Assembly: GCA_963696385.1 (NCBI GenBank)
Contig: CAVOKF010000008.1
Location: 544,001-608,000 of the forward strand
DNA from: an uncultured delta proteobacterium
Lineage (GTDB): Bacteria > Myxococcota_A > Polyangia > Polyangiales > Polyangiaceae
Direction of reading: 5' to 3'
Length of the DNA: 64,000 bases
Part shown: positions 41,372-57,460 of the stretch, piece by piece
Layout of the letters: every line of letters starts with the position of its first letter
Position numbering within the stretch: position 1 is the first letter of the stretch
Translations under genes and position numbers: made by a program
The notes under the pieces: generated by a model
The model's database searches: none
What the model saw: the letters and a program-made list of their open reading frames with translations, nothing else
What the model was told of the DNA's origin: nothing

Positions 41372-41659
41372 CGGACGGCATCTTAGGCGACAGGGCGAAA
41401 TTCGAATGGCTCATCGCCCTCGTTGGACGTCCGCAGCAGCCGCGCTTGCTGGCTTGGTCGGGACAGCGCGGCTGCCGCTCGCCTTGGTTACGCTGGCACT
41501 CGGCCTATAGTGCCGCCGCGTTAGCTCATGACAAATAGATTGTTCTTGAGCCACGGCATTCCCGCAGACGGTCCTAGCAAGGAATTGCGAATCGGCCGTG
41601 GCACCAATTGGCTAGCACGCCTCGCCGAGGCCAAGCACCCCGTCGATATCAGAGGACGG

Positions 41660-44600
41660 ATGTTTCGCTACCGAGTCTTGCTGGCTCTCCTCGGGTGCCT
41701 GACAGCGATCGGTGCGCCGGCGACTGCGAACGAGACGACTCTGGTCGTGTCGCGTGAGGACCCTTCGTTCGACGTTGCTACCAGCCGCCTTGCAGCGGGC
41801 CGGGATGGTCGCGTCTATCTTGCCAGCAACCGCTTCGTTTTGGGCCTGTGGCCCGATGGATCCGGCAAGGCGGGCGGTGCCGTAACCTACGCGTTGCAGA
41901 TGGCGGCGGCGAACGCGGCCGGCGTCATCGCAACCGCGAATGCGCACTTCAATCACAGTGTCAATCTTTGGAGTCGCGATTTCACACACATCGGCGCGGT
42001 CGCGGACTTTCTCGTAAACGACCAGGTCCAGTGGTGGTCGCCGACGGACGTCGAGGCTGGCGAGAGCGGCGACTTCTACGGTCTCGACGCGAACCGACGT
42101 CGCATCGTCCGGGTCGCAGCGCCTGGACGCATCGTCACCACGTACTCGCTGGAACGCATCGCCGAGAGCACCGTCGGCAAGGTGCCCCAGCTGCGGGTCT
42201 GGGAGCGGGGCCGCCGGTTTTACGTGCTCAGTCAAAGCGGAATGGTCTCCGTTGTCGCCTTCGACGGGGCCTTGCTGTGGTCGACGCGTCTGCGCCCAGG
42301 CGGCTTCGACGTCGACGACAACGGCCGGCTCCTCGTCCTCGCAGGGACTGAAGACACCGTTCAGATTTACGACCCCGCGGGGAAAGCTTTGGCGCCGTTG
42401 CACGTGCATATGGGTGAACGCAAAGGCCGCGTGAGCGACTTGCGGGTGTTCCACGACAACCTCTTCGTCAAGCGGACAGACCCCACCGAGCTTTTCGAAG
42501 TATACGACCGCGCTTCTGGGGCCTTTCGGCGCGTTGTTCCGGCCGATGCGGAGGTCTTTCGAATTTCGCTTCCGAGCGCGATCTGGACGGCCGGCGCCGA
42601 CGTGCCTATCTCGGTTCAGCCGCTGCCATCCGACCACCCACCGCCGTCGCGGTGGCGCGCGTGGATCCGGCCGCTGGGCTTACCGGATTTCGCGGAGCTC
42701 CCATTTCGCAACGGACAGGCGAGCATTCCGCCCGACCTCGGGGGGCTCTATCAGCTGCGCCTCTCTCCCGACCTGCGAGGGGGGGACGGAGAATACCAAG
42801 TCGACAGCTCGGTCGATATCGTGGCACCGGGCCACCGCGGCGGGATTTCGATTTTCACCCCCAACAACCGATTCTACTACGGACGCGGAGAACCCATTCC
42901 CGTCACCGTCGTCGTTCGCGTGGGTGACACGTCCGAGAGGCCTGCGAGAATTCCGATCAAGCTCGTTGAGCATGGCCAAACGATCGCAGAGTGCGACGTC
43001 GATGTGCACCCCGAAGCGGTTTCACATCTCGATTTGAGTCCAGCACTGACCCGCGCCCTTCGGCCCGACCGCTACTCGCTGACGACCGAGGTCGCAGGGT
43101 TCACCGTAGCGTCTCAGCCGATCGAGATCGGCCCGGGCATCGAGCAGGCCCCAACGTTTAGCCTCGTCCAACATGGCGACTACGCGGCGTCGTTCCCTGC
43201 CGGTGGCATCTTTACCGCCCCCGAGAAGGTCGAAGCGCATTTGAACCGCGCGAAAAAGCTCGGCATCAATATGTTCGTCGATCGCTTGGGTCACGGCTTT
43301 GCAGGTGTATTGCCGCGAGTGGACCAGATGCTCACGGCCCAGGATCTGGTCTCGACCTTGAATGGCGACCCAGCTGCTGTCTCGCCCGAGAAGGCGACGG
43401 TCGAAGGGCCGGTACGCGCGAGCATCGCAGGATATGGGGCCTACGGCATTGAGGAGCGCGCCATTCTGCTCAGCATGGATGCGGGGCTTCCGCTCGGGAC
43501 CGGATACGACTCGCGCACGCCGGAGCAGATGATGGAAGCGGTCCGACACGTGACGACGAGCTTGCTGCCGTATCCGGCATTTCGCGGGTGGAGCTGGGCC
43601 GCAAACTGGTGGGTCCAGAAGCTCGGCGAGGATGCTGCCGACGGGCCCGCGGAAAGGGCCGACTACCGCGCAGCCCTCGGCCGGGCGGAGACCACTGGGA
43701 AGTGGGATCCGGTGCTCGACCGCGTCTCGGACCGGATGCTCGCTCCGGCGGTCGACGCGGAGCAGCGGCTCGATGCCGTCCTGCAACGAACGGCGCCCGG
43801 CAAGCTGAGCGTTATGACAGGCCCCTACCGCGCGGTGGGAGTTCTGCCGCCCGTCACGTTTCGCGCAGCCGACGAAGTCGACCTTCACTATCAAGCCGAA
43901 CAGATTCAGCCGCCGGAGGTCACGCCCGAGAACGTGGACTTCTACAAACGTCCGGGCAAGCGCGCGTGGGGTCACCCCGAGATCTGGAACGACGACGGCA
44001 CCGGCGCCATGCTTTTGCCCACGTTGTTGCAGATGGCCATGCGGGGTGCCGACGGGGTCGGCTGGTCCGGGGAGCAACCATGGAACGGTTCCGGCCCGAG
44101 CGATCCCCGGGCTTCGGCGCCCGGACAGCTGTCGGTCCTACGTGCGGTCGGTCAGCTGCTTCGCAACTATGGGCCCTGGCTCACCACGCTGCACGGCGCC
44201 GATCGCGTGGCCATCGCGGTGTCGTCGCGGATGATGCGAATCGATCATTGGGGGTCGAGCACGATGGGAGAGTACTTCGGTCGTCTGTACGAGGCGTACG
44301 GTGCGTGCCTTTACGCACACCGGCCCGCGAGCTTCGTATTTTCCGATGACGCTACACCCGAGACGCTGAAGCCTTTTCGCGCCGTGCTGGTCGTCGACCA
44401 ACGCGTTGAACTCGATCCCAGTCTTTCTGCCGCGCTCACGCAGGCCCGCGCCGCCGGCGTTGTGGAGTTCTACGACGGGGCGTCGCGTCCGGAGGTTCTT
44501 GGTGGCCTTACGCCGCTCGGAATCGCCTTCGATCAAGTTCCCCGAGATCCGAGCGTTTGGCAGGACGATTCCGCATACCGCCGAATTCCTGCTTACTTTG

Positions 44601-47548
44601 AGAAGGACGCCGAGACATTGCGTCGCGTCCTCGCCCCGTCGGTCACGCCTGTCGCGGAGGTCGACGACGCGGAGATTTTGCTCACCGAGCGCGTCTCCGG
44701 ACCGGGCCACTTCGTGTGGGTCGTCGACAACATCATCCCCGATCTGGATCCCGGACTCGCCTGGCGCACGGGGTTGATCATGTCGACGCGGTTGCCGCGG
44801 ATGGCACCCGTCAAGTTGAGCCAACCAGGCGGCGCGATTTACGATGTATTCGCTCTACGAGAAGCAAAAGCCACGAACGGAGTCATCGATGCGGATCTCC
44901 GCACCATGCCAGCGCGCCTTTACGCGATCCTGCCGCGCCGGATCGATGCCGTCGAGGCGACCGCGCCCGCAACCGTCGATGCCGGAGCGACGTTCGACTG
45001 GAGCGTGATCGTCCGTGACGACCGGCATCGTCCAATGGCTTCGAGCCTTCCGGTGCACGTCACGCTCGTCGCCAGCGACGGCTCCGTGATCCAGGAGACG
45101 ATCGGGGCAAGCTCCGCCGGCGGAATGATCGCCGGTCGTTGGGTCATGCCGCTCAATGCACCCTCCGGCCCGCTTGCCTTGCTGGCGTCGGAGCTCATCT
45201 CGGGCAAAACCGTGAGCGTTCCGATCCGCGCAGTCGTCGCTTCGCAGCCGGCAAATCTCCAGCAACGGGTACCGCATGCGGACCGGGCCACCGACGCCCC
45301 GATCACCGCGATAGGGCGCGCAGCGGACGCCGCAGACGCCCCCATCGAAGCGCGCTTCGGGCCCCACCTCAAAGACGTTGCCGTGTCGGGTAGCGGCGAC
45401 CTCGCCGTCTTCAACGCCATGAACTGGGACCAGAACCTGTATGCGGTGGATCTAAAGACTGGGGATGTTCGATGGCGTCGTCGCCTTGGGCATCATTTCA
45501 GTTACGATCCCCGCAGCACGGCGAGCGCCTTCGCCGTCCAGGCGTTCGATCGAACCTCCGCCGAGGGATACCACCTCTATCTGCTCGACCCGAACGGCAA
45601 GCCCGAGCGTCGCTTCGCGCTCTACGGCTTGCCCAAGCGAGCAACTACCTGGGACACGGGCCTCTACCCGGCCGACCGCATCGATCAATTTGCCGCGTCG
45701 CCGGCGGGCGATTGGGTCGCTAGCTCCGGCGATCTCGGTGTCGTCGTGTGGGATCGCGACGGTCGGCGACGTTGGAGCGTAGACGGGTGGAAGACGGGCG
45801 AGCGTCACATCACGCTGCTCGCCGCATTGGATCGCGAGACGCTCGTCGGCGTCGATTCGACGACGGTGACCGCGTACGACGCGCGCCACGGATCCCGTCG
45901 GTGGACGATTCGACTCGCCGCAACGGGCCATGCTCTCGGTGCGGTTGTGGGCGCGCCAGCGTCGAAAATGCTTGCGGTTCGGACCGACACAGACGGGGGG
46001 CAAGTATTTCTCATTCGCGACGGGAAGCTCCTGGCGGCCGTTCCGTCGCCGGCGGACGACCTGGCGCTATCGCCGGACGGTGAGCGGTTGGCCGTCACGA
46101 CGGGCACGTCGCTCAAATGGTACTCGAACTCGGGCGCCTTGATCTGGAGTTTCACGGGCGACGACGTGCTGCGCCGTCCGACGATTAGCGTCGATGGTCA
46201 GCGGATCGCGGTCGGAAGCGAGCTCGGGACTCTGTACGTCCTGTCTGCCTCTGGGCAGATTTTTTGGGAGCACGATTGTCAGGCGTTGCCGGTAGCCCAC
46301 TGGCTCGACGGAGGTGATTTGCTGGTCGGATCGTGGATGGGACACGTGCAGCGTTTCGACGACGGCTACCGTGAGATCTGGCACACGCACCTCTCGCCCA
46401 CGACCCGCGACATTCGTCCGGCGCTTCTAGCCAAGGATGCAACGCCGACGACGCGCGTCGAGTCGTGGGGCAACGCGGCGCCCACGGCCGCACCGCTCGT
46501 CCCGAACCTGCTGACTGAAACGCACGCGCTCATCCACGCGACGATGAACGACCGCCGTCAGGAGTGGCAGAACCCGATCGCGGCGATGACCGACGGTAAG
46601 CCCGACCCACCGCCTGGGCCGTGGCTCACGTGGACGTCGATCAACTACGTCGACTCGGGCTGGTTTGGGCCCCTGAGCTTCGAAGTCGACACCTTCCATT
46701 CGCAGATCCGGCTTCGAGGCATCACGTTCGTCGAGGATGAGTCGCACCCGGAATCGTGGTCGCGCGATGTCCGCCTCCAATCCTGGGATGCTGCGCAAGA
46801 GCGATGGACCGACGGCCGTTGCCTGCTGTCGGACACCGCAACGCACACTCACTGGCTGGATCCGCCCCTCGAAGCGGCTCGCTTTCGATTCGTCACGACG
46901 GGTGGCGCAGCGTGGCCCGTTGGCAACATCCGTTTGGGAGAGATCGTGTTTCACGGAGAGCTGCTCGGCGGCTCCCATCCCGACGTCGCCGCGAAGAGAG
47001 CCATCGCCGTGCTGTTCGACGAGCAAGAGAGCGACTTTCGGACGATGATCCGTGGACGGGACCACCCGTTTTCGATCGCCTTCGGAGACGCGTATTCAGG
47101 CGGCAAGTCGCTCGTATTGACGGCGGCGGGCACGACCGCGCCCGCGTACGAACCGCCGTTCGGTCATGCCCTGCCCGATTGGGACTTTGAAATCGAAGAG
47201 CACCCCAAGCCGGGACAATACCGATGGATTCAGTTCGCGTGGAGAGCGCTCTCGCCAGACACCACCGGCATGTCGCTGCTGCTTGGCAAACCGTGGCCCG
47301 GCGGCGGTTATGCCTTCGAGGCGGGGACGCAAGCATGGCGCGAGGGCGTCCTTGCGACGAAGAGTGTGGCAGCGGCGCCGCCGCAGGCCTGGCAAGTCGT
47401 GCGTGCGGATCTCTGGTCGCTATACCGGCATCCACTCCGCATCCAGGAGATGAGCCTCGCCGCTACCGGTGGGGGCGCTGCGTTCGACCAAATCGTGCTC
47501 GGACGGACAGAAACCGACCTGGATCGCGTGGCGAGAGCCCCGCCATGA
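41660..47548 (+). CDS. Giant secreted multidomain protein (~1960 aa) with beta-propellers and a possible glycoside-hydrolase-like core
   Basis: AGAGGA RBS then MFRYRVLLALLGCLTAIGAPATA signal; NHL-like N-terminal repeats; PQQ/BamB-type repeats (YAVDLKTGDVRW, AYDARHGSRRW, GALIWSF, GQIFWEH); Trp-rich C-terminal modules. Confidence 0.8.
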   Translation: MFRYRVLLALLGCLTAIGAPATANETTLVVSREDPSFDVATSRLAAGRDGRVYLASNRFVLGLWPDGSGKAGGAVTYALQMAAANAAGVIATANAHFNHSVNLWSRDFTHIGAVADFLVNDQVQWWSPTDVEAGESGDFYGLDANRRRIVRVAAPGRIVTTYSLERIAESTVGKVPQLRVWERGRRFYVLSQSGMVSVVAFDGALLWSTRLRPGGFDVDDNGRLLVLAGTEDTVQIYDPAGKALAPLHVHMGERKGRVSDLRVFHDNLFVKRTDPTELFEVYDRASGAFRRVVPADAEVFRISLPSAIWTAGADVPISVQPLPSDHPPPSRWRAWIRPLGLPDFAELPFRNGQASIPPDLGGLYQLRLSPDLRGGDGEYQVDSSVDIVAPGHRGGISIFTPNNRFYYGRGEPIPVTVVVRVGDTSERPARIPIKLVEHGQTIAECDVDVHPEAVSHLDLSPALTRALRPDRYSLTTEVAGFTVASQPIEIGPGIEQAPTFSLVQHGDYAASFPAGGIFTAPEKVEAHLNRAKKLGINMFVDRLGHGFAGVLPRVDQMLTAQDLVSTLNGDPAAVSPEKATVEGPVRASIAGYGAYGIEERAILLSMDAGLPLGTGYDSRTPEQMMEAVRHVTTSLLPYPAFRGWSWAANWWVQKLGEDAADGPAERADYRAALGRAETTGKWDPVLDRVSDRMLAPAVDAEQRLDAVLQRTAPGKLSVMTGPYRAVGVLPPVTFRAADEVDLHYQAEQIQPPEVTPENVDFYKRPGKRAWGHPEIWNDDGTGAMLLPTLLQMAMRGADGVGWSGEQPWNGSGPSDPRASAPGQLSVLRAVGQLLRNYGPWLTTLHGADRVAIAVSSRMMRIDHWGSSTMGEYFGRLYEAYGACLYAHRPASFVFSDDATPETLKPFRAVLVVDQRVELDPSLSAALTQARAAGVVEFYDGASRPEVLGGLTPLGIAFDQVPRDPSVWQDDSAYRRIPAYFEKDAETLRRVLAPSVTPVAEVDDAEILLTERVSGPGHFVWVVDNIIPDLDPGLAWRTGLIMSTRLPRMAPVKLSQPGGAIYDVFALREAKATNGVIDADLRTMPARLYAILPRRIDAVEATAPATVDAGATFDWSVIVRDDRHRPMASSLPVHVTLVASDGSVIQETIGASSAGGMIAGRWVMPLNAPSGPLALLASELISGKTVSVPIRAVVASQPANLQQRVPHADRATDAPITAIGRAADAADAPIEARFGPHLKDVAVSGSGDLAVFNAMNWDQNLYAVDLKTGDVRWRRRLGHHFSYDPRSTASAFAVQAFDRTSAEGYHLYLLDPNGKPERRFALYGLPKRATTWDTGLYPADRIDQFAASPAGDWVASSGDLGVVVWDRDGRRRWSVDGWKTGERHITLLAALDRETLVGVDSTTVTAYDARHGSRRWTIRLAATGHALGAVVGAPASKMLAVRTDTDGGQVFLIRDGKLLAAVPSPADDLALSPDGERLAVTTGTSLKWYSNSGALIWSFTGDDVLRRPTISVDGQRIAVGSELGTLYVLSASGQIFWEHDCQALPVAHWLDGGDLLVGSWMGHVQRFDDGYREIWHTHLSPTTRDIRPALLAKDATPTTRVESWGNAAPTAAPLVPNLLTETHALIHATMNDRRQEWQNPIAAMTDGKPDPPPGPWLTWTSINYVDSGWFGPLSFEVDTFHSQIRLRGITFVEDESHPESWSRDVRLQSWDAAQERWTDGRCLLSDTATHTHWLDPPLEAARFRFVTTGGAAWPVGNIRLGEIVFHGELLGGSHPDVAAKRAIAVLFDEQESDFRTMIRGRDHPFSIAFGDAYSGGKSLVLTAAGTTAPAYEPPFGHALPDWDFEIEEHPKPGQYRWIQFAWRALSPDTTGMSLLLGKPWPGGGYAFEAGTQAWREGVLATKSVAAAPPQAWQVVRADLWSLYRHPLRIQEMSLAATGGGAAFDQIVLGRTETDLDRVARAPP

Positions 47549-48414: not shown

Positions 48415-50277
48415 CTACGGCGCGTCCCACGTTCCGACCCATGCGCGGCCCGCCCGAACGCAAGCCACATGCGTCGTATCGTTACTGATTGCGCAATCGC
48501 GCTGCTCGGCGAACGTCCCGTCGAGCTCAGAGCCGCGCAGCCAGCGCGAGCGCCCAGGACCGCGAACGATGAAGCCCACGTCGGTTGGCACGACGTAGGT
48601 CCGGCCGTCGGGCGAGCGCGGGGCGCCCGGGCGCATCGGCTGGCCCAGAAACGTGGCCAAAAGCGATGCGCGCGTGAGATCGGACGAGACCAAAATCGGC
48701 TCGCCATCGACGATGGCTTCCAAGCCGGCCGGGCCCCACGCCACAGGGGTCGTCTGCGTCGGCGCTCCGCGCGACCCCGTGCATCGGCCCGCGAGGGGCG
48801 GCGCCACCGGCAGCGCCACGTCGCGATTGTCGTCGCCGCTGGCGAGCTCGAACGTCGCTCGGAGCGGCAGGCCGTCGCACGGGTCATACGCCTCAATCCA
48901 GCGGGCGCCACCGTCGGGGGATACAACGCGCGGATCCCAATCCGGTACGTTCGCGGCGGCTTCGTCGCCGAAGTCGGGGTCGACGCGCACAACGCCAGCT
49001 CGTGTGCGAACCAGAAGCTTGCCGCCTGGTTCAAACGCGAGAGCGCCCCACGTCGGCTCGTGACTGCGAGGCGCGACCGGGACCGCCGCCACGGCACGCA
49101 CCAAGCGGGCGGTCGCCGCGGGGGCCAGTGCTGCGAGCCACTTCTGCGCCTCGGCCACACGCTGCGCCGTATGCGTCGCGGGCGGACGCTCGGCGCGATC
49201 GAGCGCCAGCGCGGTTCGAAGCGGATCGCCCATCGTGGCATACGCGCGTACGACGGCGAGGCCGAGGTCTTCCAGCGCGCGCCCGCTCCCGCACGTGATG
49301 GCGCCCGTGCCGGCCACGGCGAGCAGGCGCGGCGAGCCGCCGTCCGCGCACGCGGCGCGCCAAAGGGCACGCACTTGCGACGCATAGTTGGGCACTTCGG
49401 GAGCGTCCTGCATGTTCTTCGCGTGCCTCGTGGCGAGCGCCGCGAGCATCGAGAACGAGACCTCGGTCACCGTTGCGTCGCGGCTCAGACCGGCGGGACG
49501 ATCCGACCAGGCGAGAGTCGCCGAAACGCGTGGCCCCGGCTCGAGCGGTGGCCCACCGCCCTCGAGCATGACACGCAGGGCCACGTCGTCGCGCCCGTCT
49601 GCGTCCCGGTCAGAGACTTCTGCGTCGAGGGTCAAGGCGGGGGCGCCCTCAGGATCGGCGACGGTCGCGGCGAGGCGCACTTTGGGGTTCAGGCCACCGT
49701 CGATGACCGCGACCCAGCGCGCAGGACCCGTGGGCGGATGCTGGAGGCACTGCGCGCCCAGCTCCGCAAGGACGGAGCGCGCGCCGACGGCGACCAGCCG
49801 ATCGATCGCCAAGCAGTCGGCGTCTCGCGAAAGGCCCGCGGGCGGCGCAAATGTCGCCGCAACGGCCAGGATTCCGTCGTCGCCCGCTCCTCGGTAGTAG
49901 AGCACCTCACCGGGATCGTTGCCTTCCGCGGGGCGCGCGATGGCAAACGCTTCTTTGGCCCCGTCGCCGTCGAAGTCGCCGATGAGCGCGGAGGCGAAGA
50001 CGAGTCCATCCGGAGCGCCCAGCGTCACGCCCTCGACGATCCATTGCGTCGTGTTGGGCGGGGCTGCGGTCGCGTCGCGCTCGGCAAACCCGTCACCCGA
50101 CGAACTGGCGTCGGTGCCTCTCGACGCCGCGCTCATCGCCCCCTGCCCCATCGCCCCCTCCGGCTGCGCCGAGCCGATCGTGTACGGCACATAGGGACGA
50201 CCCCCTCGGCAGCCATGGCACCCCGCGCCCGCAACGAGGAGGACGGCGAGCAACACTCCGGGGACGACGTTCGCCAT
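48415..50277 (-). CDS. Large lipoprotein with FG-GAP-like Ca-binding motifs
   Basis: LLVAGAGC lipobox; GDFDGDGAKE and DRDADGRDDV motifs. Confidence 0.75.
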   Translation of the reverse strand: MANVVPGVLLAVLLVAGAGCHGCRGGRPYVPYTIGSAQPEGAMGQGAMSAASRGTDASSSGDGFAERDATAAPPNTTQWIVEGVTLGAPDGLVFASALIGDFDGDGAKEAFAIARPAEGNDPGEVLYYRGAGDDGILAVAATFAPPAGLSRDADCLAIDRLVAVGARSVLAELGAQCLQHPPTGPARWVAVIDGGLNPKVRLAATVADPEGAPALTLDAEVSDRDADGRDDVALRVMLEGGGPPLEPGPRVSATLAWSDRPAGLSRDATVTEVSFSMLAALATRHAKNMQDAPEVPNYASQVRALWRAACADGGSPRLLAVAGTGAITCGSGRALEDLGLAVVRAYATMGDPLRTALALDRAERPPATHTAQRVAEAQKWLAALAPAATARLVRAVAAVPVAPRSHEPTWGALAFEPGGKLLVRTRAGVVRVDPDFGDEAAANVPDWDPRVVSPDGGARWIEAYDPCDGLPLRATFELASGDDNRDVALPVAPPLAGRCTGSRGAPTQTTPVAWGPAGLEAIVDGEPILVSSDLTRASLLATFLGQPMRPGAPRSPDGRTYVVPTDVGFIVRGPGRSRWLRGSELDGTFAEQRDCAISNDTTHVACVRAGRAWVGTWDAP

Positions 50278-50336
50278 GCTCGAAATGTGGATGCACGATA
50301 GACAAGTCTCCGCCCGCGTGGGAGCTTCCGTGAGCC

Positions 50337-51188
50337 ATGGCGCGAGCCGTCGCGATCGCGATTGCTTTTCTCGGGGTCGTCTCGCTCGCGGCGACCGCGA
50401 GCGCATCGGACGACGCCTCGAGCGCCGAGCCGCTATCGAGCCTCGATCGAATCCGGAGCGATCCTGCGGTCGCCAACGATCCGCGCGAGATCGATGCGTT
50501 GGCCCGCGAGGCCGAAGGCCTTGCGCCGGGTCCGTTGCGGACCCAAGCGCGGATGATCGTGGCCGAGGCCTGGCGGGGACGCATGCAGCGTCCAAACGAC
50601 GCCATCGATGAGCTGCGCAAAGTCACGGGCGATCCAAGCACCGATCCAGTGACCGCAAGCCTTGCTGAGCGAGAGCTCGTCGACGCCCTTTTGGCCAACG
50701 GCAAGCTCGAGCAAGCCGCCGAGGAGGCACGCGCCCACGCCGCACGACTCGATCCGCCGTTCGTCGCACGCGTGCTACGGCTTGGTCGAAGGCCGACCTG
50801 GACCCTGGCGGCGATGGCGGATCTTACGGCGTACTTCGCCCTGGCCTTGCTCGCCATCGTGCACACACGGCGCACACGCACGTGGGAAAGGGTGGTCCGT
50901 TCCGTTCGGCAAATGACCCCACTCGCCGTCGGGTTCGCGGCTTACGTCGCGATCGTGGGAGGGGTGCTGGCCGCGCAGTACGAGACCGGCAACTCAGGCC
51001 CCTTCCTCGTCCTCGGCGCCGCCCTCGTGCCGCTCGTTCTGGTGGCGCGGGCCTGGAACGCCGCGTCGTCGGGGAGTCTTGCCGCACGCCTCGGCCGGGC
51101 CATTCTGTGCACGACGAGTGTCTTCGCCGTGGCGTTCCTGGTCCTACGCGCTATCCGGTCCGATTACCTCGACGGGTTCGGCCTGTGA
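50337..51188 (+). CDS. Membrane protein: signal peptide, TPR-like helical domain, four C-terminal TM helices
   Basis: Hydrophobic N-terminus (ATASA-S), helical region, four hydrophobic segments, ends YLDGFGL; GTGA overlap with next gene. Confidence 0.75.
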   Translation: MARAVAIAIAFLGVVSLAATASASDDASSAEPLSSLDRIRSDPAVANDPREIDALAREAEGLAPGPLRTQARMIVAEAWRGRMQRPNDAIDELRKVTGDPSTDPVTASLAERELVDALLANGKLEQAAEEARAHAARLDPPFVARVLRLGRRPTWTLAAMADLTAYFALALLAIVHTRRTRTWERVVRSVRQMTPLAVGFAAYVAIVGGVLAAQYETGNSGPFLVLGAALVPLVLVARAWNAASSGSLAARLGRAILCTTSVFAVAFLVLRAIRSDYLDGFGL

Positions 51189-51427
51189 GTGGGGAGCGCG
51201 CCGTCGACGAACGGAGCATTCGCCGTGTCCGCATCGGGTCCGGCGCCAACTGCTCGAGCATCGGAAGCGCCATCGACACGCTGTTCGCGACAGCGGTCAC
51301 GGGAGCCGCGATCTTCGCGGCCGTCGTCGCGGCGCTGAAAACCGAGCCCATCCAAGTCGTTGGACAGACGTCCAACGACAATCCATTGCGCGCGCCGGGC
51401 ACGCGCGACCCGGAGTCACCCCCGTGA
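51185..51427 (+). CDS. 80-aa membrane-anchored protein, candidate radical SAM substrate
   Basis: GTGA overlaps at both ends; MSGERAVDERSIRRVRIGSGANCSSIGSAIDTLFATAVTGAAIFAAVVAALKTEP... Confidence 0.7.
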   Translation: MSGERAVDERSIRRVRIGSGANCSSIGSAIDTLFATAVTGAAIFAAVVAALKTEPIQVVGQTSNDNPLRAPGTRDPESPP

Positions 51428-52590
51428 TCGTCCGCTATGAGCCTTGGGGTGCTTGGGTCAAGCTTGAATCGACAGCCGCCATCGTGGCCCTCGACCGGGA
51501 CGGTGTCCGCGCCCTCGGACTCAACGGCGGAGCCACATGGCAAGGACCGCCGCGGCCCAGCGCGCCGCTGGAAGTTCATCTCGCCGTCACTTCACGCTGC
51601 GGCGCGGGGTGCGATGGGTGCTACCTGGACGCCCAGCCGGATGGGGTCGAGCCGCCTCGCGCCGCGATCGAGCAGGAGCTCGACGCCATGCGCGACGCAG
51701 GTGTCTTCACGGTCGCGTTCGGCGGCGGGGAGCCGACGACACGCGAAGACATCGACCTCCTGGCCGCGAGCGCGCGGGCCAGGGGCCTGACGCCAGTCGT
51801 CACGACGAGCGGCCTTGGGCTCACCGACATCCGCGTCGAGCGACTGCGCTCCTTCGCGCAAGTCAACGTAAGCTACGACGGGCCTGATGCGACCTACGCA
51901 ACCGTGCGCGGCTTTGATGGCGCCGCCCTGGCCGAACGGGCCATCGAGAAGCTCGCGCGCGCGGGGATCCGCGTCGGCGTCAACGTGGTGCTTACGCAGC
52001 AGAGTTTCCCGCGACTGGCCGAGACGATCGAGCGTGCACGAACGCTCGGCGCGTGCGAGGCCCAGCTGCTCCGCTACAAGCCCGCAGGGCGCGCAGCCAC
52101 GGTGGAGTACTGGACGCGGCGGATGCACCCCGATCAAGCTCGGACGTTGGGTCCGACGCTCCGAGCGCTCACGACGGCTTACGCAGCCAGCGGGTTTTCG
52201 ATTCGCATCGATTGCGCCCTCGTTCCGTTCCTTTCGGCCGACGAGGAGCTCGGCCAGGACGCGACGCGCCTGGCCCGCTTCGGCATCTTTGGCTGCGAAG
52301 CCGCTGGAGGTCTCGCCGCGGTCACCGTGGACGGGCTCATCGCCCCGTGCAGTTTTGCCAAACCGTCGCAGCTAAGTGCTGCCCATCTGAACGGCGGCTA
52401 CGCCGTGGACGCCGAGCTCGGGCGCTGGCGGGCGTACAACGACGCGCCGGCGGAGCCGTGCGCGTCGTGCTCACTGCGCCCGGTCTGCAAGGGCGGGTGC
52501 AAGATTGTAGCGGGGTGGGTCACGGGATCTCACGGACCTGACCCGGAGTGCCCACGCGTTCTCGCATATCGCGAGCCCCGCGCCACGTGA
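51424..52590 (+). CDS. Radical SAM/SPASM-domain enzyme
   Basis: CGAGCDGC (CxxxCxxC), FGGGEP, GCEAA...APCSF, CASCSLRPVCKGGC...DPECP (SPASM). Confidence 0.92.
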   Translation: MIVRYEPWGAWVKLESTAAIVALDRDGVRALGLNGGATWQGPPRPSAPLEVHLAVTSRCGAGCDGCYLDAQPDGVEPPRAAIEQELDAMRDAGVFTVAFGGGEPTTREDIDLLAASARARGLTPVVTTSGLGLTDIRVERLRSFAQVNVSYDGPDATYATVRGFDGAALAERAIEKLARAGIRVGVNVVLTQQSFPRLAETIERARTLGACEAQLLRYKPAGRAATVEYWTRRMHPDQARTLGPTLRALTTAYAASGFSIRIDCALVPFLSADEELGQDATRLARFGIFGCEAAGGLAAVTVDGLIAPCSFAKPSQLSAAHLNGGYAVDAELGRWRAYNDAPAEPCASCSLRPVCKGGCKIVAGWVTGSHGPDPECPRVLAYREPRAT

Positions 52591-52898
52591 AGACCGCCTG
52601 GATTCCGGGAACACTGCTCGCGCTCGCATGGGGCCTCGTGATTGAGGTGGACGCGTACGCGGCAATGCGGGTGGTCCAGGTGCTCACTGGGCCCCAGGCC
52701 GACCCCGCCGCGATTTCCTGGAGTGTCCACTCGGGCTTTTTCTGGCGCGTCCTTACTGTCGCGTACGGTGGGGGAATCGCGGCGTTCGTCGCGTTCGTTG
52801 TCGTGCGCCGACGAGTCGCGCTCGCAGCGCGCGGGCTCGTGCCGGCCGTTGCGATTGCCGGCGGTCTATTGGCCTTGCAGAGTACGTTCTTTCCTTGA
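52587..52898 (+). CDS. Small three-TM membrane protein
   Basis: GTGA-coupled to the radical SAM gene; three hydrophobic segments, DPAAISWSVHSGFFWR loop. Confidence 0.7.
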   Translation: MKTAWIPGTLLALAWGLVIEVDAYAAMRVVQVLTGPQADPAAISWSVHSGFFWRVLTVAYGGGIAAFVAFVVVRRRVALAARGLVPAVAIAGGLLALQSTFFP

Positions 52899-53074
52899 GA
52901 ATTTCAGCGCTGTGCCCACACCCGCGAGCAGGGCTTGCGCAAGCAGGACATCCAGGCACCGGGTGCGGATCTTCCGTCGCGGACGACGTCGGCTTCGTGT
53001 AGGGTGCGCGTCGCGCGAAGGAAGCTCACGCGAAGGAGACTGCGAGAATCTTGCGACTCGATGGGCCGTCGCGC

Positions 53075-53818
53075 ATGGGCGCACTCGCGGGCGCAGTACT
53101 CTGCCTTTCCGGCTGCCCGAACCCGAACGCCTACACCGTGCCGCGAACGCTCGAACCGGGCGACTTGCAGGTTGTCGTCGCGGCCGAAGTGTATGGATTC
53201 GGCACCAACATTGCCAATCCAGCCACAGCGGGCAGTAGCCCTCCGTCGTCCACGGTCTGGGGAGCGACCCCGCTATTGCCGACCATCGGCATTCGGTACG
53301 GTCTCGTCGAAGGAGTGGATGTCGGAGCGCGCTTCGAGAACTTCCAATCGCTCGCCGGTGACTTGAAGCTTCGTTTGCTTCGAGGCAATTTGGACATGGC
53401 GATCGACCCTGGCTTGGATGCCATCTATGTGGATACCGAAATAACCAACGCGGATACGACCACGGTGACGCGGAACGCCGGCGTGTTCTATTTGCATGCG
53501 CCGCTGCTGCTTGGCCTCAACTTCTCGGACTCCCTGACGCTGGTTGCGTCTCCCGGCCTGGCCTACGCCATTGCGACAGGACCGTTGGCCGGGGCGAGCC
53601 ACGCCGAGCAGGCCGGCGCGTCAACCGCGCTCCTGGCACGTCTCGGGTTGGGCGTGGATGTTCGCACGAGCGACCAGCTTGCCATCCACCCGGAACTGAC
53701 CTGCATGAGGGGTTTCAACAGTGCGCAGTCGCTTCTGTGCATAGTCGGTTTGGCTTTGAACATTGGCGCGCAGGCCAACTACGACGACCTGCGTCCCGCC
53801 CAGCCGTCGGAGCAGTAA
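53075..53818 (+). CDS. Putative lipoprotein with outer-membrane beta-barrel-like domain
   Basis: LCLSGC lipobox; alternating beta-strand patterns (IRYGLVEGVDVGARF, LGLGVDVR). Confidence 0.7.
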   Translation: MGALAGAVLCLSGCPNPNAYTVPRTLEPGDLQVVVAAEVYGFGTNIANPATAGSSPPSSTVWGATPLLPTIGIRYGLVEGVDVGARFENFQSLAGDLKLRLLRGNLDMAIDPGLDAIYVDTEITNADTTTVTRNAGVFYLHAPLLLGLNFSDSLTLVASPGLAYAIATGPLAGASHAEQAGASTALLARLGLGVDVRTSDQLAIHPELTCMRGFNSAQSLLCIVGLALNIGAQANYDDLRPAQPSEQ

Positions 53819-53835: not shown

Positions 53836-54894
53836 CTACGACGCCCAATCCTCGAACGAGCACCCAACGAGAACCGGCTCCAGTTCGAGCCTCACCCCGA
53901 AGCGGTCCCAAACGGCATCGCGAATGCGTGCGGCGACGCCGAGAAGCTCGCGGCTCGTCGCACCGCCCCGGTTGACCAACGCGAGCGCGTGCTTCTGCGA
54001 CACGCCCACCCGCCCGTCCCTCCACCCCTTCGTGAAACCGGCGCGCTCCACGAGCCACGCGGCAGCCAGCTTGAATCGCCCGCCGTCGAGCGGAAACGAC
54101 GCAGGGCGCTCGCCCGCACGCGCTTCCACCTCAAGAAGTCCCTGTGCATCGACGACCGGATTGACGAAAAACGACCCTGCGCTGACCGATTCGGGATCGT
54201 TCGGGTCGACCACCATCCCCTTCCCGCGTCGCAGCGCGAGGATCGTCTCGCGAACAAGGGCGGTGGGGGGTCGGCTGCCCTCGGGCGTCGCTAGCGCGCG
54301 CGCTAGCTCGGCGTAGCGGATCGGAGCCGCGAGGGGGCTCACGTCGAACGCAAACCGAACGCTCGTGACGATCCAGCGGTCGTTGCGTTTGAAGACGCTC
54401 GCTCGGTAGGACAGGCCGCATGACGCCGCGGGCAGCGTCACGAAGTCCCCCGCTACGCGATCGTACGCCCGCACCGAAACGAGCGTGTCGCTCACCTCCT
54501 GTCCGTAGGCTCCGACGTTCTGGATCGGCGTCGCGCCGACGAGCCCGGGAATGCCGCTCATGCACTCGATGCCGCTCCACCCGTCGGCAATCGCGCGGGC
54601 GACCAAGCCGTCCCAGTCTTCTCCCGCTGCCACGTTGACGACGACCTGCATCCCGTCGCGCCGGACGTCGACGCCGCGAAGGCCCATCGCCACGACGGTA
54701 CCCGGAAAGCCCTCGTCGCCGACGACCACGTTGCTGCCCCGGCCGAGAACGAAAACGGGGTCTCCTCGCAGCCGAGCCTGCCGAAGCACGGGCGCGACGT
54801 CGCCTTCGGACTCGACCTCGACCCATCGCGACGCGAGCCCCCCCAGCCGAAGGGTGGTGAGCGGTGCCAGCGAAACGTGCTCGCCCTCGCGCAT
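53836..54894 (-). CDS. murB: UDP-N-acetylenolpyruvoylglucosamine reductase
   Basis: TTLRLGG, LGRGSN, GIPGLVGATPIQNVGAYG, YRASVFK, SAGSFFVNP, KHALALVN, LELEP. Confidence 0.96.
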   Translation of the reverse strand: MREGEHVSLAPLTTLRLGGLASRWVEVESEGDVAPVLRQARLRGDPVFVLGRGSNVVVGDEGFPGTVVAMGLRGVDVRRDGMQVVVNVAAGEDWDGLVARAIADGWSGIECMSGIPGLVGATPIQNVGAYGQEVSDTLVSVRAYDRVAGDFVTLPAASCGLSYRASVFKRNDRWIVTSVRFAFDVSPLAAPIRYAELARALATPEGSRPPTALVRETILALRRGKGMVVDPNDPESVSAGSFFVNPVVDAQGLLEVEARAGERPASFPLDGGRFKLAAAWLVERAGFTKGWRDGRVGVSQKHALALVNRGGATSRELLGVAARIRDAVWDRFGVRLELEPVLVGCSFEDWAS

Positions 54895-54925
54895 GATAAA
54901 GGGATCTACCGCAAGCGGGTCGTCG

Positions 54926-57460
54926 ATGCAGTCGCTCCCCATCGATCCCCTCCTGCCCGACATCGTCGCGTCGTTGCGCGCCCGGCCCACGCTGGTGCTC
55001 GAGGCGCCGCCAGGAGCCGGAAAGACAACCCGTGTCCCGCGCGCGCTGTTCGACGCGGGGTTCGCCGAAACAGGCGAAATCCTGGTCCTCGAGCCGCGCC
55101 GCCTGGCCACACGCCTGGCGGCGCGTCGGGTCGCCGACGAAATGGGGGAGCGGGTGGGCAGCACCGTCGGCTATCAAGTCCGATTCGAAGACGTGTCGAG
55201 TACCCGCACTCGCGTGCGGTTCGTGACCGAGGGGGTACTCGGGCGCAAGTTTCTCGCGTCGCCTTGGCTCGAGGGCGTGAGCGTCGTCGTCCTCGACGAG
55301 TTCCACGAGCGGCACTTGCACAGCGACGTCGGCCTCGCGCTCCTCGAGCGGCTGCGTCGCGGCCGCCGACCCGATCTCCGTATCGTCGTCATGAGCGCGA
55401 CTTTGGCCACCGAGCCCCTCGCCTCGTATCTCGGGGCGCCGGTCTTGCGCGCCGAAGGCCGGCGCTTTGAGGTCACAGTCGATCATGTGGCTTCTCCCGA
55501 CGATCGACCCGTTGGACTGCAGATCGCGTCCGCGGTCCGGCAGCTGGTCCACGAAGGACTCGATGGCGACGTGCTCGTCTTTCTGCCTGGAGCCGCGGAG
55601 ATTCGCCGGGCGCAAGAGGCTTGTACGAAGATTGCGACCGACGCGGCGCTCGCCCTTGTCCCGTTGCACGGTGACCTCTCGCCCCAGGAACAGGACGCCG
55701 CCGTACGACCGGGGACGACGCGCAAGGTTATCTTGTCGACCAACGTCGCCGAATCGTCGGTCACGATCGAAGGCGTCGTCGCCGTCATCGACTCGGGCCT
55801 GGCGCGTATCGCCTCGCAAGCCCCCTGGTCTGGACTGCCACGGCTACGTGTCGAGAAGATCAGCCGCGCATCGGCCATTCAACGCGCCGGACGTGCGGGG
55901 CGCACCCGACCGGGCCGCTGCATGCGCCTGTACACGCGCGCCGACTTCGATTCGCGCCCGGAACACGAGGCCCCCGAGATCCGCCGGCTCGATCTCGCGC
56001 AGACCTGGCTCGAGCTCGCGGCGACCGGCACCGCAGAAATCCCTTGGCTCGAGCCCCCGCCGCCGGCGCATGTCCGAGCGGCCGAGGATCTTCTTCGCCG
56101 GCTCGGCGCGATCGACACGCAGGCTCGGTTGACCGAGACGGGAAGCGCGATGCTGCGGCTCGGCGTCCACCCGCGCGCCGCGCGCGTCGTCGTCGAAGGC
56201 GAACGACGAGGCGTGATCCATGCCGCCTGCGCCGCCGCGGCCGTCCTCGCGGAGGGAGACCCCCGGGCCTTGAGCCGGACCCGTTTCGGCCCCGGCCGAG
56301 GCGATGATCGAGCTACCGAGGGCTCGGACGTCGGCGCGATTCTCGACCTCTTACGCGAAGCGCAAGACGCCCACCTTTCCGCCAGCGCGATCCGCGCTGC
56401 GGGGCTCGACCTCGGCGCCACGCAAGCGATCGTGAGAGCCGCCGCGCAGTTCGAGCGTGCGTGCCCCCGGACGGGTGCCGACGATGCGCACGACGAAGAA
56501 GCCGCGCTCGGTATCGCGCTCCTTTCGGGATACCCGGATCGCGTCGCGAAGCGGGTGCGCCCCGGGGGGCGCCAAATTGCGCTTGCGGCCGGAGGATCCG
56601 CCGAGATTGCGGAGTCGAGCGTCGTCCGCCAAGCCGAGTGGCTCGTGGCGCTCGAAGCGGAAGAGCGGAGCGACGGGCGGTCCCGCGGCGGCGTGGTCGT
56701 GCGTCTGGCGAGCGCGATTGACCCCGCCTGGCTTGTCGACCTTTTCCCCGATCAGGTGAAAGAGCACCGTGAGATAACCTGGGACGCGCCCTCGGAGCGC
56801 GTCCGCACGGGCGAGTCTCTCGAGTGGGACGGACTGACGCTCTTGCGATCGGAGCCCCCAGATGGCGCGTCGGACGAGGCGTCGCGGGTGCTCGCAACCG
56901 CCGCCCTAGCCGCGGGTCCGTCGGCGCTGGCACCCGTCGAGGCGTTCGACGCATGGGTGGCGAGGACGCGCTTTGCCGCCTCCATCGACCCATCGATCGA
57001 GATTCCGGACGACGCGGCGTTGCATGCGTCGATCGTGCAGCTCTGCGAAGGACGCCGCAGCTTTGCGGAGCTTCGAGAGGCCGGGTGGCTCGAGACCCTG
57101 CGCCGATCGCCCCGATGGCCCGCGGAGGCCATCGCGCGCCTTGCCCCAGATCGCGTCGTGCTCGCCGGCGGCCGATCGGTGGCCGTGCGTTACGAGATCG
57201 GTCGGGGTCCGAGCCTCGCTTCGCGGTTGCAGGACTTCTTCGGAATGACCGACGGGCCCCGCGTCGGCGGAGGCCGGGTGCCCGTGATCTTAGAGCTCTT
57301 GGCGCCCAACGGTCGAGCCGTGCAAGTCACAACCGATCTCGCAGGTTTCTGGCAGCGCCACTACCCTGCGATTCGCAAGGAGCTCATGCGGCGCTATCCG
57401 CGCCACTCGTGGCCCGAGGATCCGACGAAGCCAGCGCCGCGGATGCGCGCTCCGCGGTGA
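54926..57460 (+). CDS. hrpB: ATP-dependent RNA helicase HrpB
   Basis: APPGAGKTT, DEFHER, MSAT, STNVAESSVTI, QRAGRAGR, ELLAPNGRAVQVTTDLAGFW, RYPRHSWPEDP. Confidence 0.96.
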   Translation: MQSLPIDPLLPDIVASLRARPTLVLEAPPGAGKTTRVPRALFDAGFAETGEILVLEPRRLATRLAARRVADEMGERVGSTVGYQVRFEDVSSTRTRVRFVTEGVLGRKFLASPWLEGVSVVVLDEFHERHLHSDVGLALLERLRRGRRPDLRIVVMSATLATEPLASYLGAPVLRAEGRRFEVTVDHVASPDDRPVGLQIASAVRQLVHEGLDGDVLVFLPGAAEIRRAQEACTKIATDAALALVPLHGDLSPQEQDAAVRPGTTRKVILSTNVAESSVTIEGVVAVIDSGLARIASQAPWSGLPRLRVEKISRASAIQRAGRAGRTRPGRCMRLYTRADFDSRPEHEAPEIRRLDLAQTWLELAATGTAEIPWLEPPPPAHVRAAEDLLRRLGAIDTQARLTETGSAMLRLGVHPRAARVVVEGERRGVIHAACAAAAVLAEGDPRALSRTRFGPGRGDDRATEGSDVGAILDLLREAQDAHLSASAIRAAGLDLGATQAIVRAAAQFERACPRTGADDAHDEEAALGIALLSGYPDRVAKRVRPGGRQIALAAGGSAEIAESSVVRQAEWLVALEAEERSDGRSRGGVVVRLASAIDPAWLVDLFPDQVKEHREITWDAPSERVRTGESLEWDGLTLLRSEPPDGASDEASRVLATAALAAGPSALAPVEAFDAWVARTRFAASIDPSIEIPDDAALHASIVQLCEGRRSFAELREAGWLETLRRSPRWPAEAIARLAPDRVVLAGGRSVAVRYEIGRGPSLASRLQDFFGMTDGPRVGGGRVPVILELLAPNGRAVQVTTDLAGFWQRHYPAIRKELMRRYPRHSWPEDPTKPAPRMRAPR

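Follow-up and report, generated by a model that had tools for sequence, protein, structure and literature searches.

SPASM radical S-adenosylmethionine (SAM) enzymes have been mined mainly as makers of secreted modified peptides. One of them, the radical SAM/SPASM enzyme SuiB, forms the Lys-Trp cross-link of streptide in its precursor, SuiA. The passages of PMC10114670 on anaerobic sulfatase-maturating enzymes (anSMEs) describe SPASM enzymes that oxidise Ser or Cys to formylglycine through abstraction of a C-beta hydrogen, and those of PMC13692751 on CrpC describe a SPASM enzyme that puts thioether cross-links on a protein, CrpA, in Methanococcus voltae. In the present study, we analyzed a 64,000-nucleotide stretch of DNA from an uncultured delta proteobacterium (assembly GCA_963696385.1, contig CAVOKF010000008.1; hereafter the window), which belongs to the order Polyangiales. 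A four-gene operon, A-B-C-D, that is shared by soil myxobacteria lies on its plus strand at positions 50337..52898. Gene C encodes a radical SAM/SPASM enzyme, and the small product of gene B is probably a dedicated, tethered substrate of this enzyme, modified at or next to residue 23.

The small module and its association with the enzyme

According to the reading of the open reading frames (ORFs), gene A (50337..51188) encodes a 283-residue protein with a signal-like N-terminus, a helical-repeat (TPR-like) domain and four hydrophobic helices. Gene B (51185..51427) encodes an 80-residue protein with a basic strand, an invariant loop, a hydrophobic helix and a variable acidic/Pro-rich tail. Gene C (51424..52590) encodes the enzyme of 388 residues, and gene D (52587..52898) a small hydrophobic protein of 103 residues with two to three helices. 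An earlier note on this DNA had reported four genes coupled by three GTGA overlaps, and the GTG start of each downstream gene was indeed found to overlap the TGA stop of the preceding one at 51185..51188 (A/B), 51424..51427 (B/C) and 52587..52590 (C/D). In a survey of 75 non-redundant loci of the window's order, the 4-nucleotide overlap was kept in 61 of 65 scoreable A/B pairs, 64 of 72 B/C pairs and 40 of 48 C/D pairs, and in three further pairs B and C were in frame without a stop. The overlaps are therefore no local accident.

The sequence of B begins MSGERAVDERSIRRVRIGSGANCSSIGSAIDTLF... and contains a single Cys. Its one hydrophobic stretch spans residues 29-53 (Kyte-Doolittle 2.26 over 19 residues). 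The ORF and the hydrophobicity analysis agree here with the earlier note, which had described an 80-residue protein with one Cys and one transmembrane-like helix after GSGANCSSIGS. The motif R-I-G-S-G-A-N-C-S-S-I-G-S (residues 16-28) is encoded at 51230..51268, with the codon of Cys23 at 51251-51253 within this near-invariant stretch, and the helix at 51269..51343, all on the plus strand. A word-index search returned 241 relatives of B among 244 candidates. A profile of B matched 273 clusters (50% identity) at E ≤ 0.001, and 145 at E ≤ 1e-10, among 1.84 billion representatives. The homologues share their start at an MS-x-ER N-terminus. Thirty close sequences show little or no variation across R16-x-G18-x-G20-A-N-C-S-S-x-G-S-x-x-D-T-L-F-A. 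Among 23 diverse ones, N22, C23, S24, S25, G27, S28, L33 and F34 are invariant and V15, R16, G18, G20 and A21 near-invariant, and the C-terminal tail varies freely. B is a real, conserved gene.

Across the family the motif takes the form G-x-x-[AP]-N-[CS]-S-[SA]-x-G. The mean hydrophobicity of the helix is 2.3 in the split Cys type, 2.1 in the fused type and 1.6 in the Ser type described below, all of which pass the classical threshold. Two other readings of the conserved residues were considered. A lipoprotein lipobox was dropped, since Asn stands before the Cys and the helix comes after the Cys, not ahead of it. So was a glycyl-radical-type site in the conserved V-R-x-G, for which nothing in the analysis speaks.

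The module is found together with homologues of C at several taxonomic depths. Homologues of C are present in 26 of 41 related genomes, the window's own included, and B lies just upstream of C in 24 of the 26 loci; of the two misses, one is a cut locus and the other was undetected by tblastn. One unpublished genome (G010, locus L015) makes up one row of these two tallies and of the working alignments; every claim stands without it. Among genomes of the window's genus, three (G003, G004 and G017; 92-100% complete) gave no homologue of C at E ≤ 1e-20 with this query. The system is therefore common, not universal, among close relatives. A motif scan of one genome per species (185,579 species) gave 71 loci, labelled Polyangiaceae, Labilithrix, Myxococcales, Polyangiales, Myxococcota, 'delta proteobacterium' or 'Proteobacteria bacterium'; they include a cultured carrier, Labilithrix luteola DSM 27648 (L066). 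Of 401 Myxococcota genomes sampled across the phylum, 49 matched the profile of B (43 among the 340 of high quality; 39 of 254 genera). Thirty of the 49 lie outside the window's order; in their loci (hereafter the distant loci) the C homologues are 38-47% identical to C (figures from 14 loci). As a test of its proposal, the earlier note had asked for a motif constantly adjacent to this enzyme clade. The motif R-x-G-x-x-x-N-[CS]-S-[SA] is directly followed by a C homologue in 67 of the 71 loci and in 30 of the 30 distant loci; three of the four misses (L047, L075 and L095) are contig ends, and the fourth is taken up below.

In the distant loci the module takes two forms. In 22 of the 30 it is carried in frame on the N-terminus of the enzyme; one of these, L118, was caught only by a looser motif pattern. 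In the fused form, a short N-terminus is followed by [RK]-x-G-x-x-[AP]-N-C-S-[SA]-x-G, the hydrophobic helix, a patch of basic residues, about 20-45 residues of Pro/Gly/acid-rich linker and the enzyme. The other eight loci have a separate small ORF with G-[YF]-N-P-N-S-S-S-[VI]-G-S, in which Ser replaces Cys. A search with one fused protein scored 8000 candidates, of which 875 were relatives at E ≤ 1e-30. Among the best 120 of them, the strict motif was found at residues 3-34 in 93 and a variant motif, read by eye, in 13, with Ser for Asn22 in four. A further nine start inside or at the end of the helix and five after it; these 14 are most likely a matter of gene-start calls. Three relatives of the fused protein carry the database name 'Alphaproteobacteria bacterium'. 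In most lineages, to go by these homologues, the module is the enzyme's own N-terminus, and in the window's order it is a separate 80-residue gene. This arrangement, the replaceable Cys and the spread beyond the window's order are what the present comparison adds to the earlier note.

A tree was built from the cores of 87 enzymes. In it, the split Cys-type enzymes of the window's order lie on one side of a branch with support 99/98, the Ser-type enzymes form one clade (100/99), and the fused forms fall into two groups of 8 and 14. L015, L020 and L072 were left out of this tree, and L002 and L045, in which B and C read in frame, were labelled 'split' by group. Since the midpoint root serves for drawing only, the tree is compatible with either fusion or splitting as the ancestral state.

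In-frame B-C reads inside the window's order (L002=L033, L020=L072 and L045) were not used as evidence. In two cases they may be assembly errors; a garbled stretch inside C suggests assembly indels in L020/L072. In L045 the helix is joined directly to the start of the enzyme, and a representative protein, P0340, is a further B-C fusion. In many fused forms the helix is followed by an A-x-A-like N-A-[FW]-A, which prompted us to consider a twin-arginine or Sec signal peptide at the fused N-terminus. The former was dropped because the Arg pair lacks conservation, with R-L, R-P, H-L and K-F found as well, and export of the fused enzyme because an exported radical SAM enzyme would be without SAM and reductant.

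The enzyme and its predicted complex with the module

C belongs to the radical SAM superfamily (PF04055, 56.3 bits against a cut-off of 29.5) and to the SPASM subfamily (TIGR04085, 35.1 bits against 27), as the earlier note had concluded when it described a radical SAM enzyme with a complete SPASM motif. The cluster motif C59-x3-C63-x2-C66 is encoded at 51598..51621; in 56 sequences C63 and C66 are invariant and C59 is near-invariant. The SPASM region (52213..52551) shows the pattern C-x12-G-x4-C, C-x2-C-x5-C-x3-C plus a distal Cys. Its eight Cys residues (C264, C291, C309, C346, C349, C355, C359 and C376) are conserved in both enzyme alignments. [quoted passage not shown]

Against the NCBIfam families, C scored 80.8 bits for the mycofactocin maturase MftC (TIGR03962; cut-off 265), 69.6 for the pseudo-SAM family TIGR04347 (525), 64 for PqqE (TIGR02109; 381.35), 64 for NirJ (TIGR04051; 515.45), 63.8 for AhbD (TIGR04545; 500) and 39.5 for the tetraether synthase family NF045702. 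The anaerobic sulfatase maturase family was not among the 25 best of 50 NCBIfam rows. C reaches no curated equivalog cut-off and represents an uncharacterised family. The earlier note had named membership of C in the NirJ/Ahb, PqqE or MftC families as an outcome that would overturn its proposal; with 64-81 bits against cut-offs of 265-515, this outcome did not occur, and a heme, pyrroloquinoline quinone or mycofactocin enzyme was dropped on account of the same distance.

When a profile of 56 members of the C family was compared with the PDB, the matches were PqqE (6c8v, 6.8e-23), SuiB (2.5e-18), SkfB (7.4e-15), tetraether synthase (7tol, 9.6e-13, over the core residues 46-180 only), CteB (4.8e-11) and anSME (1.9e-10). 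In a fold search with a modelled fused homologue, SuiB was nearest, with a template-modelling (TM) score of 0.68, followed by SkfB, PqqE, CteB and anSME. C is thus a distant relative of the peptide- and protein-modifying SPASM enzymes, and PqqE 6c8v is only a distant homologue.

The complex of C (alignment of 56) with B 1-55 (alignment of 30), SAM and three 4Fe-4S clusters was then modelled. The runs scored 0.72, 0.83 and 0.83, against 0.00, 0.00 and 0.02 for the controls. In the calibration of the modelling tool, 116 of 157 solved complexes attained this mark, as did 2 of 215 mismatched pairs. At least 92% of the contacts are common to the runs, and the predicted local distance difference test value (pLDDT) of the partner is at least 64. 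In the model, the contacts with the lowest error join B 11-16 (SIRRVR) to C 19-30, as a strand added to the N-terminal sheet, and B 11-34 as a whole also touches C 14-32. B 17-34 touches C 49-54, Y67, 96-104 (the G-G-E stretch), 123-127, 145-148, 183-187, 212-219, 246-267, 282-297 and 309-311. Among these contacts are the SPASM residues C264 and C309 as well as the neighbours of C291 on either side. No confident contact is made by the middle of the helix (B 35-45), but one is made by B 46-55. The models support binding of B to C with the N-C-S-S loop in the catalytic cleft.

A fused homologue of another clade was modelled independently with AlphaFold2 from a 97-row alignment (mean pLDDT 93.0; predicted TM score, pTM, 0.92). 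Its N-terminal strand 3-8 has a pLDDT of 89, the helix 92 and the linker 56, and the strands are 3-8 at the N-terminus, 68-72, 75-81 and 84-89. The sequences of the enzymes were also compared between the Cys and Ser types. The only enzyme positions that are uniform in the Ser clade and differ from both Cys groups are L141C, Q214E, R261K and A265S. Three of the four lie in the predicted interface (78 of 388 residues), and A265 adjoins the SPASM residue C264. This co-variation is only a hint as to the chemistry.

The proposed modification and alternative explanations

The modification of B by C could proceed as follows. The basic strand B 11-16 would join the short N-terminal beta-sheet of the enzyme, as RiPP leaders do on recognition elements, and in the model the G-A-N-C-S-S-I-G-S loop would then sit between the SAM-binding cluster and the first auxiliary cluster. 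The 5'-deoxyadenosyl radical would take a hydrogen at or beside residue 23. Because residue 23 alternates between Cys and Ser from clade to clade while Asn22 and Ser24 stay, the target is most likely a C-H bond common to both residues. Oxidation to a formylglycine-type aldehyde would be one option, and a thioether or ether cross-link through either heteroatom another. Since a whole clade has Ser at this position, Cys is not essential to the chemistry family-wide. In solved SPASM enzymes, eight SPASM Cys residues suffice to ligate both auxiliary clusters fully; the eight conserved in C therefore fit a mechanism without a substrate thiol as a cluster ligand. As the gene order suggests, the helix might hold the modified loop at the membrane or against A and D, and the product would be a fixed membrane-associated element instead of a secreted peptide.

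Several points weigh against a substrate role of B. The support for it consists of sequence comparisons and models throughout, and a plain membrane anchor would likewise look like a fused N-terminal module. The complex score may partly reflect likeness to known structures, because peptide-bound SPASM structures exist (5v1t, 4k38, 5wgg and 9gm3), and the custom alignments and small molecules in the complex model differ from the setting in which the score was calibrated. In the fused AlphaFold2 model, the motif itself has a pLDDT of 61, which is moderate confidence only. The co-variation in the Ser clade amounts to one evolutionary event at four positions, and the binomial chance that at least three of them fall in the interface is about 0.03, uncorrected. 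One locus of the species-wide scan, L087, has A and B but no C, with 4 kb of flank available, and a D-like ORF on the other strand. It comes from the same metagenome-assembled genome as L093, which lies on another contig and has the full A-B-C-D order, so that this genome carries two A-B copies.

Topology raises a further difficulty. The enzyme must be cytoplasmic, because it needs SAM and reductant; if the helix spans the membrane, the fused forms would have their motif on one side and the enzyme on the other. A simple single-span tether with the N-terminus inside is hard to reconcile with a cytoplasmic enzyme, since in most lineages the module is the N-terminus of that enzyme. The charges on the two flanks of the helix in the fused forms (2.72 and 2.45 K+R per 15 residues) leave the orientation unsettled. 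The basic residues on both flanks, the long flexible linker after the helix and the contact of both helix ends with the enzyme in the model together point to an arrangement in which both ends are cytoplasmic while the loop is in the cleft. Alternatively, the loop may be modified first and the short N-terminus may then cross the membrane. In that case, the TPR-like domain of A, which would be outside if the signal-like N-terminus works, could bind the loop.

Other roles for the module were weighed against that of a substrate. It might be a membrane anchor or an autoinhibitory pseudo-substrate, with the tethered enzyme acting on a membrane lipid or a neighbouring protein. The position of the module at the N-terminus, fused in 22 of the 30 distant loci and followed by the Pro/Gly/acid-rich linker, suits such a role, as does a helix above the classical hydrophobicity threshold in all three subfamilies. 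The lipid-modifying SPASM tetraether synthase is among the relatives, and A and D are membrane proteins without known function. A simple anchor, however, needs no invariant N-[CS]-S-x-x-G loop. The split forms retain both the loop and the translational coupling to the enzyme, and in the modelled complex the loop occupies the catalytic cleft, which goes beyond mere surface contact. The match to the tetraether synthase, moreover, is weaker than those to the peptide maturases and is confined to the radical SAM core. We regard the anchor as unlikely.

It is also conceivable that B, as a precursor, gives rise to a small diffusible product, for instance a peptide-derived redox cofactor or a natural product, in the way that PqqA yields pyrroloquinoline quinone and MftA mycofactocin, with a protease encoded elsewhere for its later release and with A and D in handling or export. 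The mycofactocin maturase and PqqE are among the best NCBIfam rows for C, PqqE is the best solved relative by profile, and the core motif shows the invariance of a cofactor precursor. Both scores, however, are far under their cut-offs. The conserved block contains no protease, transporter or gene like PqqB/C/D or MftB/D/E, and its flanks vary. The hydrophobic helix is conserved together with the motif, as one would not expect of a part destined to be discarded, and the fused forms would require the enzyme to be cut. A precursor role seems to us distinctly improbable. Still further from what we expect is an unmodified B that serves as a permanent subunit, its Cys or Ser holding or tuning an auxiliary cluster or the module completing the truncated recognition domain. 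The model does set B 11-34 against the N-terminal sheet and beside the SPASM residues C264, C291 and C309, and the fused model aligns with SuiB at full length, N-terminal domain region included (436 columns). The eight conserved SPASM Cys, however, are already present and are enough for two clusters, and a loop fixed in the cleft would block other substrates; such a subunit is very improbable.

If B is a substrate, a wider proposal may be put forward tentatively, and with more doubt than belief. The enzyme would be a self-modifying radical SAM enzyme whose own N-terminal loop is the substrate, carried on a flexible linker and split off in the window's order. A protein-derived reactive group, either a formylglycine-type aldehyde or a cross-linked residue, would be held at the membrane as the working part of a new membrane complex with A and D.

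Neighbouring genes and comparison with described systems

The earlier note had read A as a TPR-like protein with four transmembrane helices. The helical-repeat domain and the four hydrophobic segments were recovered, together with an N-terminal signal-like hydrophobic stretch that the note did not mention. The AlphaFold2 model of A is all-helical (pLDDT 91.3, pTM 0.81). A Foldseek search of the PDB with this model gave no match at E ≤ 0.001, the best rows being generic TPR proteins at E 0.06. The ESM Atlas returned just 'TPR hypothetical, Myxococcota' for A and nothing for D. D had been described as a protein with three transmembrane helices; two segments pass the 1.6 hydrophobicity threshold and the first putative helix falls below it. 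Three helices are therefore plausible, not secure. In the species-wide scan, A is upstream of B in 64 of the 71 loci and D downstream of C in 49. Of 14 distant loci, a hidden Markov model (HMM) of D matches the ORF 3' of C in 11, and the HMM of A matches the ORF 5' of it in three. By eye, the upstream ORF at the distant loci mostly ends in a tail like ...YLDGFGL of the window. The conserved gene order suggests that A and D may be partners of B and C.

The conserved block contains no protease, exporter or sulfatase, and A, B and D have no Pfam or NCBIfam match at E ≤ 0.1. These scans and the varying flanks bear out the earlier note, in which the lack of all three had been remarked. A scan of 50000-53300 for promoters and terminators found no element sensibly placed for the operon. 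In the window's order the operon has a conserved syntenic setting: 60 of 97 loci have a divergent gene for a 620-residue lipoprotein upstream, and 71 of 97 have MurB downstream; outside this order the operon flanks differ between lineages. The predicted lipoprotein of the window (48418-50277, minus strand; N-terminus MANVVPGVLLAVLLVAGAGC) has D-x-D-G-D-G-type stretches and belongs to no Pfam family. It may have a functional link to the operon or merely be part of a conserved backbone. On the other side are a MurB-like UDP-N-acetylmuramate dehydrogenase (53836-55164, minus strand) and an HrpB-like helicase (54551-57460, plus strand), both judged from their translations by eye. The retention of MurB beside the operon fits a vertically inherited locus, not a mobile cluster. 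Just 3' of D, a 255-residue ORF (53051-53818, plus strand) has a weak outer-membrane beta-barrel match (PF13505, E 0.013, below the cut-off) and is beside the operon in no other locus compared. A 2006-residue ORF upstream of the lipoprotein (41528-47548, plus strand) was found in none of the related loci compared.

Two further kinds of neighbour were observed. A copper protein of the plastocyanin/azurin family (PF00127, 9.5e-16) is upstream of the lipoprotein in eight loci of the window's order, for example at L056:513-953; the cluster of eight lies about 3.8 kb upstream of B. A metallophosphoesterase resembling purple acid phosphatase (PF16656 and PF00149) is encoded no more than a few kb from the operon in 8 of 14 distant loci with wide flanks (L098, L099, L100, L101, L104, L105, L108 and L110; also L119). 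It is mostly convergent or divergent to the operon, and in L099 and L110 a phosphate-selective porin is beside it. No metallophosphoesterase was found in the window or in the loci of its order.

In full-text searches of mostly open literature, neither the motif nor a helix-bearing substrate nor a fusion of a SPASM enzyme with its substrate was found described; in the passages of PMC10288494 that speak of 'fused' proteins, the word refers to recognition domains and tags, not substrates. The present family departs from the secreted-peptide pattern in its mostly vertical inheritance, the absence of a protease or exporter, the membrane-like helix and a candidate target on the enzyme itself. Inheritance seems to be mostly vertical because the split Cys and split Ser forms are each one clade and MurB stays beside the operon. 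The candidate target is found on the enzyme itself in hundreds of database proteins; where a source gives a name, it is just 'radical SAM protein', in some cases with a SPASM domain mentioned, and others are unnamed. If B is indeed a substrate, the family would offer a natural enzyme-substrate fusion for the study of SPASM catalysis, a natural Cys-to-Ser switch that discriminates between mechanisms, and a lead to a new membrane function in Myxococcota.

Among the described systems, SuiB-SuiA (5v1q/5v1s/5v1t) is the best fold match of the fused homologue (E 1.4e-15). In both systems there are three clusters and an N-terminal region for peptide binding, and a peptide substrate, here a candidate, is encoded beside the enzyme. 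The identity is, however, about 16%, and the N-terminal region of about 45 residues stands against the full recognition domain of SuiB. Unlike SuiA, the candidate substrate has a hydrophobic helix, no Lys/Trp pair and, in most cases, a fusion to the enzyme, and the operon is without an exporter or protease. PqqE-PqqA and MftC-MftA, the top rows in the PDB profile and NCBIfam searches, share with the present family a small conserved peptide next to a SPASM enzyme, in a vertically inherited operon in place of a patchy antibiotic cluster. They differ in the scores (64 against 381 and 80.8 against 265 bits) and in their accessory genes, of which neither pathway's are present; the motif of B, moreover, has neither Glu/Tyr nor a C-terminal Val-Tyr.

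The substrate motif of sulfatases is (C/S)-x-(P/A)-x-R. B reads N-C-S-S-I-G-S and lacks this motif, and the operon lacks a sulfatase. Only near L109, among the distant loci, did an ORF of the sulfatase family turn up. The acceptance of Cys or Ser by AtsB and anSMEcpe (4k36-4k39), as far as the source describes it, parallels the alternation at residue 23 of B; the target, here a candidate, is in both cases a protein rather than a free peptide, and the folds compare with TM scores of 0.55-0.58. The sequence relation is weak, with the best stretch of the profile match only in the SPASM part. Since B lacks the motif and C is not close, the likeness is one of logic, not of membership. CrpC-CrpA, going by the passages on it, resembles the proposed system in that a SPASM enzyme with a recognition element modifies a neighbouring protein and not a classical secreted peptide. 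CrpA, however, is there described as Cys-rich with several cross-links, whereas B, with its single Cys (in the Ser clade not even that), is membrane-like and in many cases joined to the enzyme as a fusion.

A classical RiPP cluster differs from the operon in having a leader peptidase or exporter, and A, B and D belong to no family and have flanks that differ between lineages. Sactipeptides and ranthipeptides depend on a Cys thiol donor; such a donor is not universal here, as 8 of the 30 distant loci read G-[YF]-N-P-N-S-S-S and the Ser-type enzymes form a well-supported clade. As for a leader recognised by the enzyme, the complex model predicts a pairing of B 11-16 with the N-terminal strand of C (0.83 against 0.02 for the best control).

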